A stretch of 23,022 nt of DNA, taken from the IMG/VR virus record IMGVR_UViG_2698536506_000009; one strand, 5' to 3'. Below the pieces are notes generated by a model that had not been told where the DNA came from, did no database searches, and was given only the letters and a program-made list of their open reading frames with translations. The stretch is from a virus (lineage: Duplodnaviria > Heunggongvirae > Uroviricota > Caudoviricetes). This document shows, piece by piece, positions 16,719 through 19,139 of the stretch. Each line of letters opens with the position of its first letter. Within the stretch, counting starts at the first letter, position 1. A program made the translations under genes and the position numbers.

Positions 16719-16917
16719 GAGGTTGCCCCGTATTCAGTGTCGCTGATTTGTATTGTCTGAAGTTGTTTTTACGTTAAGTTGATGCAGATCAATTAATATG
16801 ATACCTGCGTCATAATTGATTATTTGACGTGGTTTGATGGCGTAGATGCACGTTGTGACATGCAGATGATAATTATTATCATTTTGCAGGTCCTTTCCGG
16901 CGATCCGACAGGTTACG

Positions 16918-16929
16918 GGGCGGCGACCT
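16918..16929 (+). other. Lambda cosN cohesive-end site (cosQ upstream, cosB downstream to Nu1)
   Basis: Exact GGGCGGCGACCT preceded by ...TCCGACAGGTTACG and followed by CGCGGGTTTTCGCTATTTATGAAAATTTTCCGG..., matching the lambda genome ends as I recall them. Distance from cosN to the Nu1 ATG (178 nt) matches lambda. Confidence 0.8.
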
Positions 16930-17106
16930 CGCGGGTTTTCGCTATTTATGAAAATTTTCCGGTTTAAGGCATTTCCGTTCTTCTTCGTCGTAACTTAATG
17001 TTTTTATTTAAAATACCCCCTGAAAAGAAAGGAAACGACAGGTGCTGAAAACGAGCTTTTGGGCCTCTGTCGTTTCCTTTCTCTGTTTTTGGCCGTGGAA
17101 TGAACA

Positions 17107-17652
17107 ATGGAAGTCAACAAAAAGCAGCTGGCTGACATTTTCGGTGCGAGTATCCGTACCATTCAGAACTGGCAGGAACAGGGAATGCCCGTTCTGCGAG
17201 GCGGTGGCAAGGGTAATGAGGTGCTTTATGACTCTGCCGCCGTTATAAGATGGTATGCCGAAAGGGATGCTGAAATTGAGAACGAAAAGCTGCGCCGGGA
17301 AGTTGAAGAACTGCGGCAGGCCAGCGAGACAGATCTCCAGCCAGGGACTATTGAGTACGAACGCCATCGACTTACGCGTGCGCAGGCCGACGCACAGGAG
17401 CTGAAAAATGCCAGAGACTCCGCTGAAGTGGTGGAAACCGCATTCTGTACTTTCGTGCTGTCGCGGATCGCAGGTGAAATTGCCAGTATTCTCGACGGGA
17501 TCCCCCTGTCGGTGCAGCGGCGTTTTCCGGAACTGGAAAACCGACATGTTGATTTCCTGAAACGGGATATCATCAAAGCCATGAACAAAGCAGCCGCGCT
17601 GGATGAACTGATACCGGGGTTGCTGAGTGAATATATCGAACAGTCAGGTTAA
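17107..17652 (+). CDS. nohQ: Terminase small subunit Nu1
   Basis: 181-aa ORF MEVNKKQLADIFGASIRTIQNWQEQGMPVLRGGGKGNEVLYDSAAV..., near-identical to lambda Nu1 as I recall it. Confidence 0.9.
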   Translation: MEVNKKQLADIFGASIRTIQNWQEQGMPVLRGGGKGNEVLYDSAAVIRWYAERDAEIENEKLRREVEELRQASETDLQPGTIEYERHRLTRAQADAQELKNARDSAEVVETAFCTFVLSRIAGEIASILDGIPLSVQRRFPELENRHVDFLKRDIIKAMNKAAALDELIPGLLSEYIEQSG

Positions 17653-18226
17653 CAGGCTGCGGCATTTTGTCCGCGCCGGGCTTCGCTCACTGTTCAGGCC
17701 GGAGCCACAGACCGCCGTTGAATGGGCGGATGCTAATTACTATCTCCCGAAAGAATCCGCATACCAGGAAGGGCGCTGGGAAACACTGCCCTTTCAGCGG
17801 GCCATCATGAATGCGATGGGCAGCGACTACATCCGTGAGGTGAATGTGGTGAAGTCTGCCCGTGTCGGTTATTCCAAAATGCTGCTGGGTGTTTATGCCT
17901 ACTTTATAGAGCATAAGCAGCGCAACACCCTTATCTGGTTGCCGACGGATGGTGATGCCGAGAACTTTATGAAAACCCACGTTGAGCCGACCATCCGCGA
18001 TATTCCGTCGCTGCTGGCGCTGGCTCCGTGGTATGGCAAAAAGCACCGGGATAACACGCTCACTATGAAGCGTTTTTCCAATGGTCGTGGCTTCTGGTGC
18101 CTGGGCGGTAAAGCGGCAAAAAACTACCGTGAAAAGTCGGTGGATGTGGCGGGTTATGATGAACTTGCTGCCTTTGATGAGGATAACCGCGCTGACAGAC
18201 AATACGCAGGGGGCAGCAGGTCTTGA
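17627..18226 (+). pseudogene. Terminase large subunit (gpA) N-terminal fragment
   Basis: 199-aa ORF matching the lambda gpA N-terminus up to ...YDELAAFD, then diverging into a short out-of-frame tail ([15 protein letters not shown]). Deletion junction near 18180-18190. Confidence 0.85.
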
Positions 18227-19139
18227 GTTATACGAGGTGTATAACAACGGATATCCAACAGCGTATGGAAATATCATTCACCTGAAAGGGATGACAGCCG
18301 TTGGCGAAGGTGAGTTACTCATCGGCTGGAGTGGTACAAGCGGTGCTCATGCTCCGGCATTTATTCGTTCACGACGGGATACGACCGACGCAAACTGGTC
18401 GCCGTGGGCGCAGCTTTACACCTCGGCTCATCCTCCTGCAGAGTTTTATCCAGTCGGTGCACCAATCCCGTGGCCATCAGATACCGTTCCGTCTGGTTAT
18501 GCCCTGATGCAGGGGCAGACTTTTGACAAATCTGCATACCCGAAACTTGCAGTTGCTTATCCGTCAGGCGTGATCCCTGATATGCGTGGCTGGACGATTA
18601 AGGGCAAGCCCGCCAGTGGTCGGGCCGTATTATCTCAGGAACAGGACGGCATTAAATCGCACACCCACAGCGCCAGCGCATCCAGTACGGATTTGGGGAC
18701 GAAAACCACATCGTCGTTTGATTACGGAACCAAATCCACGAATAACACCGGGGCGCATACCCATAGTATTAGCGGGACCGCAAATAGTGCCGGTGCGCAC
18801 CAACACAAGAGTTCCGGTGCATTTGGTGGCACGAACACGAGCATTTTCCCTAATGGTTATACCGCGATTTCAAATCTAAGCGCGGGGATTATGAGCACAA
18901 CAAGCGGTAGTGGCCAGACTCGTAATGCAGGGAAGACATCATCAGATGGTGCTCATACCCACTCGCTGTCCGGCACTGCTGCAAGCGCAGGCGCACATGC
19001 ACATACTGTCGGTATTGGTGCTCATACGCACTCCGTTGCGATTGGTTCACATGGACACACCATCACCGTTAACGCTGCTGGTAACGCGGAAAACACCGTC
19101 AAAAACATCGCATTTAACTATATTGTGAGGCTTGCATAA
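18081..19139 (+). CDS. stfQ: Side tail fibre protein, C-terminal remnant
   Basis: ORF in a different frame from the gpA fragment. Tail-fibre-like sequence begins near 18190 and contains His-rich GAHTHS / GAHAHT / IGAHTHSV / IGSHGHTI repeats. Stop overlaps the tfaQ start. The N-terminal part of the ORF before the junction is probably not native. Confidence 0.7.

Follow-up and report, generated by a model that had tools for sequence, protein, structure and literature searches.

A Rare Allele of the Qin Prophage with a Retained cos Region, a Terminase Stump and a Recurrent Deletion Breakpoint in the Side Tail Fibre Gene

Introduction

Qin is a lambdoid prophage which is present in about half of Escherichia coli and Shigella genomes and ranges in size from 11 to 97 kb (PMC6379469). 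Annotations of the cos sites and the Nu1 homologues kept in Qin and in DLP12 go back decades, and recombination of these prophages with lambda has already been measured. Exchange between lambda and Qin was found within the stf-tfa homology and was about 100-fold better with DLP12, for which the junctions with lambda cluster at cos and the nu1 gene is functional in lambda (PMC3945230). Initiation of packaging needs cosN and cosB, and termination needs cosQ and cosN (PMC4669245, PMC9026076). The present study deals with the virus record IMGVR_UViG_2698536506_000009, a stretch of 23,022 nucleotides which is called the window over its full length, and in particular with the part of it in which cos and Nu1 stand beside a shortened terminase gene and the end of a side tail fibre gene. 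In kind, this cos-nohA-stfQ'-tfaQ-pinQ end of Qin is already known, and the window is a rare member of the family.

We put at roughly 85% the probability that the window holds the decayed packaging region of a Qin-type prophage, that its intact counterpart is the live phage PhiR42_1, and that its cos would be usable by the enzyme of a helper phage. The finding so stated adds little in kind; a breakpoint hot spot in the fibre gene and a natural variant of the packaging-termination signal cosQ are the parts worth keeping. The region had been singled out in a preliminary description made from the letters of the window without database searches.

Identity and Frequency of the Prophage

Judged by alignment and gene order, the window comprises an entire cryptic lambdoid prophage of the Qin type, inserted at the 5' end of ydfJ, in a rare allele which is not that of K-12. 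The integrase gene begins at base 20 and the host gene ydfJ at 21739, and the order ...cspI-gnsB-ydfO-ynfO-cos-nohA-stf'-tfaQ-pinQ-ydfK is collinear with K-12 Qin and with the Qin alleles of other strains. Identity with K-12 Qin reaches 99.9% across 11.5 kb plus 3.8 kb; K-12 lacks 547 nt that are present here, which rules out that the window is K-12 Qin itself. Alignment to lambda, the route by which the preliminary description had proposed to map the deletion, places window positions 16556-18185 on lambda 48141-48502 plus 1-1269 with 97.3% identity, far above chance.

The alignment to PhiR42_1 (PV340562.1) is closer. The window corresponds to PhiR42_1 1046-4686, 10221-24766 and 45350 to the end, and the middle block shows 5 mismatches in 14,546 nt (99.97% over 14.5 kb). 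Relative to this phage the window has two deletions, one of 5.5 kb covering the immunity, dicB and O region and one of 20.6 kb covering the head and tail genes.

The joint between the shortened terminase gene A' and the fibre fragment stf' was found in none of 5,426 complete E. coli genomes and in no GTDB representative. The same complete genomes hold about 371 Qin alleles of the K-12 or S3 type, 48 of the W5-6 type and 3 of the DLI.5a type. The exact 199-aa product of A' is encoded in at least six independent draft or read-assembly contigs, which are identical to the window across the joint. As the same joint occurs in all these independent assemblies, it is not an assembly artefact.

Joint, Terminase Remnant and Nu1

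The deletion joint, GAGGATA/ACCGCGCTGAC, lies at 18184-18187 on the plus strand with the break between 18185 and 18186, where PhiR42_1 24766 is joined to 45355. PhiR42_1 24767-45349, about 20.6 kb, is absent, and with it the rest of A, W, B, C/Nu3, D, E, FI, FII, Z, U, V, G, T, H, M, L, K, I, J, lom and the N-terminus of Stf, which bears out the claim that all head and tail genes had been deleted. Position 18186 is the second base of a codon in the A frame and the first base of a codon in the fibre frame, so that the fusion is out of frame, again as the preliminary description had it. The fibre part, stfQ' (18186-19139, plus strand), is the C-terminal part of the side tail fibre gene, 317 codons long as against 1025 for the intact PhiR42_1 Stf; it carries a Collar domain and a fibre repeat and aligns to lambda orf-314. 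Its frame is open from 18069, with candidate starts at 18081 and 18177 that lack an obvious ribosome-binding site.

In-frame fusions to the fibre C-terminus are seen in other alleles. They include gpA(1-349)::Stf of 601 aa (L002 5170-5177; strain W5-6 and 47 further complete genomes), the gpA start VNI::Stf (K-12 StfQ) and Nu1(1-170)::Stf (L256). A portal::Stf fusion and a tape-measure-like::Stf fusion (L183/L227 and L184/L240, respectively) are also in frame. In the window, the frame is restored if the 547 nt absent from K-12 are removed.

The terminase small subunit Nu1 (nohA) is encoded at 17107-17652 on the plus strand at its full length of 181 aa (Pfam PF07471, E = 2e-101), as had been stated. 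It is identical to the Nu1 of PhiR42_1 and differs from that of lambda by K48R, A75T and L132I; its winged-helix DNA-binding N-terminus is that of lambda apart from K48R. The large subunit gene A' (17627-18226, plus strand) starts at the lambda GTG codon and its translation gives 199 aa, comprising 186 gpA codons followed by 13 frameshifted residues, with the stop at 18224-18226, in agreement with the earlier estimate of a cut after about 185 residues. The product keeps Y46, the K76-K84 P-loop and D178/E179, and covers the Pfam profile GpA_ATPase only at positions 3-144 of 247, while no Pfam match to GpA_nuclease was found in A'. By this domain content A' has lost the remainder of the ATPase domain together with the nuclease domain and the portal-binding end, and the element would thus have no functional terminase of its own. 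The extent of gpA that is kept varies freely between Qin alleles, which end at codons 3, ~82, 186, ~312, ~349, ~395 and ~519.

The cos Site

The 12-nt cohesive end GGGCGGCGACCT is found at 16918-16929 on the plus strand, identical to lambda 1-12. From lambda 48487 to bp 53 the window shows zero differences, so that the flanks of the cosN nick sites are conserved too and the claim of an exact cosN stands. Nicks are predicted at 16917/16918 in the top strand and at 16929/16930 in the bottom strand. GGGCGGCGACCT occurs as a single copy in the 23-kb window, which means that there is one cos only.

The cosB segment (16966-17082, plus strand) has the lambda layout of R3, I1 region, R2 and R1. R2 (17026-17041, inverted) and R1 (17067-17082) are identical to lambda and were recovered as the expected inverted repeat, and R3 (16966-16981) has the core CATTTCC in place of the lambda CGTTTCC (G54A). 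In all, cosB differs from lambda at seven places (bp 54, 73, 102, 134, deletion of 138, 145 and 176), and the six other than G54A fall in spacers, one of them being the 1-bp deletion between R2 and R1. All seven are shared with the live phage PhiR42_1. Among 128 sampled natural cos sites, 17 have the R3 allele and 11 the cosN-cosB haplotype as a whole. Positions 56, 58 and 59 of R3, which were flagged as critical by the Feiss laboratory (PMC4669245), are the same as in lambda. The start of Nu1 lies 190 nt from the nick, as compared to 191 in lambda. Taken on sequence, then, the window has the cosN, cosB and I2 region that are the wild type in a clade of live phages.

The deviation lies in cosQ, the signal for terminating packaging, whose coordinates we take to be those of Wieczorek and Feiss (2001). 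By alignment to lambda, the heptamer at 16888-16894 (plus strand) reads AGGTCCT instead of GGGTCCT, a G>A change at 16888 which corresponds to lambda 48473. The spacing is kept, at 23 nt from cosQ to the nick as in lambda (heptamer 17 bp upstream of cosN), and the heptamer sequence is not. The preliminary description had held the cos to be intact and the cosQ/cosB context to be exact; the cosB layout is indeed retained, with seven differences that make up a common natural haplotype, but the rare substitution in cosQ contradicts the remainder. Of the mutations in cosN or the Nu1 binding sites that it had named as damaging to its claim, cosN has none and R3 shows G54A, a normal allele of live phages and not a damaging one; the mutation is found instead in cosQ, which it had not listed.

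This G>A is the sole mismatch of the window against its nearest relatives, the assemblies L126, L127 and L129; for GCA_900479185.1 this holds over 15,396 nt. At the same position G is found in K-12 Qin, in PhiR42_1 and in all other Qin alleles examined. GGGTCCT is present in 118 of 120 IMG/VR loci and in 17 of 17 GTDB loci with adjacent cos sequence (135/137 together). An exact search of IMG/VR for the A form gave 0 matches, and A at position 1 of cosQ is carried by none of the ~3,200 complete E. coli genomes that have the corresponding 61-mer. AGGTCCT was found once elsewhere, through a look-up of a small cos-spanning ORF, in the draft assembly GCA_012104055.1 (L154, AARQMW010000033.1, 8263-8315). 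The host element there is an apparently complete Qin-like prophage, with a full A and with head and tail genes as far as the contig extends. It differs from the window at 12 sites around cos, and because the backgrounds differ to this extent the AGGTCCT form looks recurrent or recombined. The substitution could be tolerated or do mild harm, or the A in the window could be an error of sequencing. The allele provides a natural test of cosQ position 1, as GCA_900479185.1 (G) and the window (A) make an otherwise isogenic pair.

Expected Behaviour with a Helper Phage

One illegitimate deletion of 20.6 kb joined codon 186 of the terminase large subunit gene to the last third of stf. All head and tail genes were lost in this step, and cos, Nu1, a dead stump of gpA, the tip of the fibre, tfa and pin were left. 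Nicking of this cos by a helper is expected because a living clade has the same cosN and cosB. A helper whose Nu1 has lambda-type specificity would, with integration host factor, bind R3, R2 and R1 and nick cosN, and the chromosomal double-strand break so produced would stay capped by terminase on the Nu1 side and be open to RecBCD on the cosQ side. Packaging would run rightward, from cosN towards Nu1, and take up the 4.8-kb right arm (A', stf', tfa, pin and ydfK) and then host DNA from ydfJ on; the prophage body to the left of cos would not be taken into the head. Such rightward packaging could not terminate because the window holds one cos only, and the expected products are abortive docL-like particles. 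Use of the site as a terminal cos would also depend on cosQ with its rare G>A.

The preliminary description had suggested that a lambdoid helper could still package this DNA or that the DNA could recombine with an incoming phage. As to the former, cutting is plausible, with cosN, cosB and Nu1 all wild-type for the live clade, but packaging of this DNA as such is not, as the right arm and host DNA would be taken, there is one cos, and without replication genes no concatemers would be formed. Recombination is plausible on the same sequence grounds, and that of lambda with Qin and with DLP12 was measured (PMC3945230). Stimulated recombination and marker exchange with the helper would be the likeliest real-world consequence of the retained cos.

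The nearest correctly oriented Chi is at 13834 on the plus strand, 3.1 kb leftward of cos. The 23 kb hold six Chi octamers, at 2220, 9210, 9267 and 13834 on the plus strand and at 9800 and 9852 on the minus strand, as against 0.5 expected from shuffles; none is known in lambda itself. In the Qin of K-12 MG1655 (L003), 11 of 11 variable sites in the stretch matching window 16799-16901 are lambda-identical, while the sequence on both sides is like that of other Qin alleles and the patch ends at cosN. Since cos-stimulated exchange with a lambda-type phage would leave a lambda-like patch ending at cosN, the K-12 patch supports such exchange.

Recurrent Breakpoint in the Fibre Gene

The fibre-side breakpoint of the window, TA/RCCGCGCTGAC, is common to at least 19 distinct deletion classes with different left partners. 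Expressed in PhiR42_1 coordinates, the joints of the Qin alleles are 24216/45355 in K-12, 24452/45355 in S3, 24766/45355 in the window and 32264/45355 in NCCP12480. The hot spot was scanned with the 29-mer starting at the breakpoint, and with its G allele, in IMG/VR and metagenome contigs. Intact fibre sequence lies upstream in ~105 of 127 loci with the 29-mer and in 29 of 35 loci with the G allele; in the remainder, unrelated sequence abuts exactly that nucleotide. The flanks map as collinear deletions with left ends at lambda 697 (Nu1), 719, 955, 1269 and ~880 (A), 3911 (B), 6321 and 6988 (E), 8064 (Z), 8767 (U), in gene L and at 19588 (just after lom), and further left partners are a non-lambda portal gene and a tape-measure-like ORF. 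No more than TA is common to the left partners; the last two bases are TA in 16 of the 19 classes, CA in 2 and TG in 1. Among the loci examined, only two other joints fall in the 55 nt upstream of the breakpoint and four in the 450 nt downstream. As to a symmetric double-strand break, the left side of the site was kept in only 1 of 89 loci, but for a rightward deletion there is little dispensable DNA to lose.

At several joints the palindrome GGTTA/ACC is formed, which is the outcome that would be expected of head-to-head joining of two 3' ends both ending in GGTTA. The 8-mer TAACCGCG has just two copies in the phage, one at the fibre site and one in gene Z (PhiR42_1 45353-45360 and 31560-31567). 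The gene Z site, TA/ACCGCGTTGC, has four deletion classes of its own, one of them with the left end GAGGATA/ of the window, and joints from the Z site to the fibre site exist (L168, L247). Left endpoints recur as well in lambdoid remnants: five classes end at GATACC/GGGG in the Nu1 C-terminus, four or five at GGATA/CCGCG in A, and two classes each at two further sites. These recurrent left sites share a W-W-A-C-C-G-S-G-like sequence and lie at PhiR42_1 24188-24207, 24082, 24377 and 25765, the first three of which are window 17607-17626, 17501 and 17796 while 25765 is deleted in the window.

Several explanations of the recurrence were tried and rejected. Dependence on the A of TAACCGCG (position +1) was ruled out, as the TAGCCGCG allele has four classes of its own. 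Deletion by Pin was dismissed since no pix- or gix-like 26-bp site of the form TTnTCnnAAACC-nn-GGTTTnnGAnAA is present at the fibre breakpoint or elsewhere in the region, a search in which the e14 pix sites with their 1797-bp spacing were recovered as positive control; nor was a crossover site of this kind found near pinQ in the region searched. PinQ was reported to act in trans on the e14 P segment in a 2025 paper (PMC12529663). A hairpin or pause structure at the hot spots was excluded because the DNA folds no better than shuffles. Natural mosaicism of tail fibres was discarded for the non-fibre left flanks, since these consist of a portal gene, a tape-measure-like ORF and fragments that are out of frame.

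Read on the minus strand, the fibre site is CGCGGTTACCCGACCT. The pattern GGTTAC-N(0-12)-CGACCT, which was defined after seeing the site, is confined in 48.7 kb to the true cosN and the fibre hot spot, with 0.02 occurrences expected. Against a pseudo-cosN stand the Z site, which has only the first half of the pattern, and the position of the implied nick, which is 2 nt off that of the lambda terminase relative to GGTTAC. A site-directed break of some kind behind the recurrent deletions is a tentative proposal on our part, and we advance with the same reserve the notion that a sequence-specific nick repeatedly removes the morphogenetic genes of lambdoid prophages and spares cos-Nu1 and fibre-tip/tfa/pin. 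Either the terminase of the phage itself, acting at a cosN half-site look-alike (minus strand CGCGGTTA^CCCGACCT), or another phage nickase could make the nick; involvement of the terminase is a hypothesis that we regard as rather improbable. All Qin alleles carry one nearly invariant right-flank haplotype, and because this flank is shared, the Qin joints may stem from nested descent or from independent events alike. Independence of the deletion events is favoured because some of the left partners come from foreign phage types.

If a defined nick drives the hot spot, prophage decay would be partly programmed by phage sequence and enzymes and not just a matter of random deletion followed by selection. 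The grounding of such prophages would then be partly self-inflicted and site-directed, and the common cos-Nu1...fibre-tip-tfa-pin architecture of many E. coli remnants would be explained. The hot spot also made the nohA/stfQ junction of K-12, and it offers a simple system for illegitimate recombination that can be tested by PCR.

Alternative Explanations

Some points weigh against the origin and behaviour proposed here. Cutting and packaging at this cos are inferred by us from its sequence. That cos and Nu1 are retained is no sign of selection: at 5 changes per 14.5 kb, ~0.3 changes would be expected by drift alone in the ~750 bp of cos and Nu1, and the divergence from the live phage (5/14,546) is too low for their preservation to be evidence of it. 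The non-random position of the joint shows that the deletion was not a plain random event. Finally, the cosQ change is extremely rare yet present in one apparently complete prophage, so it may or may not matter, and it could be an error of sequencing in the window's source. This last point leads to the alternative that the cos is fully wild-type, with the G>A at 16888 as a sequencing or assembly error or a neutral polymorphism, which we take seriously while holding it appreciably less probable than its opposite. A single base is at stake, the four closest assemblies all have G, and the same A sits in a prophage in which A, W, B, C, D, E, FI, FII, Z, U and V are retained, which suggests that it is perhaps tolerated. 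On the other hand, natural variation in cosQ was described as not apparent (PMC4669245), in line with the count of 135/137 given above, and the A form is absent from IMG/VR and from the ~3,200 complete genomes. Moreover, the chance that the sole difference in 15,396 nt would land in the 7-bp signal is ~5e-4, a post hoc figure.

Two other alternatives assign a function to the remnant. In one, the element is a domesticated anti-phage decoy, in which the Q protein of an invader would switch on the late operon and Nu1 and the 199-aa gpA fragment would poison the terminase or soak up Nu1. The fragment does keep the Nu1-binding end and the P-loop, Nu1 is intact and the natural GTG start of A' overlaps its end as in lambda, and Nu1 is kept in many Qin alleles while the amount of A that is lost differs. 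Interference with the small terminase subunit TerS is known from phage-inducible chromosomal islands (PICIs), which act through Rpp proteins (PMC9026076). Nevertheless, we find the decoy very unlikely: K-12 and related alleles have no A' and their Nu1 is without its last 5 residues, in the gpA-binding tail, the extent of A' varies freely between alleles, and the divergence from the live phage is too low for selection to be tested. Even less credit is given to a PICI-like cos satellite that would excise by int and xis, multimerise and be packaged by a helper as a 43-kb dimer from cos to cos. A full integrase and excisionase are present, unlike in K-12, the length is 21.7 kb with a lambda-type cos, and twice 21.7 kb fits the lambda head within its packaging limits. 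However, the replication module is absent, as the deletion of PhiR42_1 4687-10220 took the immunity and O-gene region, and there are neither capsid-size genes nor an Rpp-like gene beside cos. The cos also lies mid-map with the specificity of the helper itself, and the altered element is cosQ, which is needed for every cos-to-cos termination.

Other Features of the Window

To the right of the fibre fragment, tfaQ (19139-19714, plus strand) encodes an intact tail fibre assembly protein of 191 aa (Pfam PF02413) with 94% nucleotide identity to lambda tfa, and pinQ (19812-20402, minus strand) an intact serine DNA invertase of 196 aa with the Pfam domains Resolvase and HTH_7. At the left end, the integrase (20-1315, 431 aa, with Arm-binding and catalytic domains) and the excisionase (1335-1586) are both intact and on the minus strand; intQ of K-12 is a pseudogene interrupted by IS2 remnants. 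A second joint is seen at 3640-3641, where PhiR42_1 4687-10220 is missing along with ydfD, dicB, dicF, ydfABC, dicA, dicC and the cII-like, O-like and methyltransferase genes. Since this deletion removed those genes, the allele has no immunity region. The same joint truncates an exonuclease VIII-like gene and gives a 673-aa ORF at 1659-3680. Inside the prophage, a 437-aa ORF at 4986-6299 carries HTH and rve_3 transposase domains, and the corresponding stretch of PhiR42_1 is annotated as two separate mobile-element coding sequences.

Comparison with Known Systems

PICIs such as EcCICFT073 are, like the window, chromosomal elements that depend on a helper terminase, and their cosQ and cosN are almost the same as the helper's (PMC9026076). 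They differ in having a replication module of their own and an Rpp protein which retargets TerS to a private cosB, whereas the window has a cosB and a Nu1 of the helper type. None of the hallmarks of PICIs (replication module with primase/rep and ori, Rpp-type protein, helper-derepressed regulator) was found in the gene content of the window, where Nu1 itself adjoins cos. With no replication module, no Rpp and cosQ as the altered cos element, mobilisation as a unit in the PICI manner would fail. The docL particles of lambda, which Sternberg and Weisberg reportedly obtained in 1975 through packaging from the single cos of a prophage supplying its own terminase, are closer to the expected fate of the window, namely packaging that starts at one chromosomal cos and enters host DNA where no terminal cos follows. 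The lambda prophages in question had their own terminase, and for Qin such particles are a prediction only.

The cos-nohD region of DLP12 is likewise a lambdoid remnant of K-12 that keeps cos and a Nu1 homologue; it is a separate prophage at a separate locus, and the likeness is drawn from the literature. PhiR42_1 (48.7 kb) is the live and intact counterpart, with identical Nu1 and cosN-cosB and the order int-xis-exo...dicB-dicA/C-O...relBE-hokD-rem-ydfU-Q-lysis-cos-Nu1-A-W-B...J-lom-stf-tfa-pin-ydfK. Compared to it, the window is without 5.5 kb and 20.6 kb, has a different cosQ and shows another allele at the fibre tip.

K-12 Qin (nohA-stfQ-tfaQ-pinQ, b1548-b1545) lacks window positions 17636-18182, so that its NohA consists of Nu1 residues 1-176 and a 13-residue tail and the start codon of its gpA (VNI) continues in frame into Stf. 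It has GGGTCCT at cosQ and a lambda-like patch to the left of cosN. In addition, its int is a pseudogene and dicA/dicB are present, whereas the window has an intact int and xis and has lost the immunity region. The two nevertheless have in common the ydfJ site, the gene order, the fibre-side breakpoint and the 13-residue frameshift tail.

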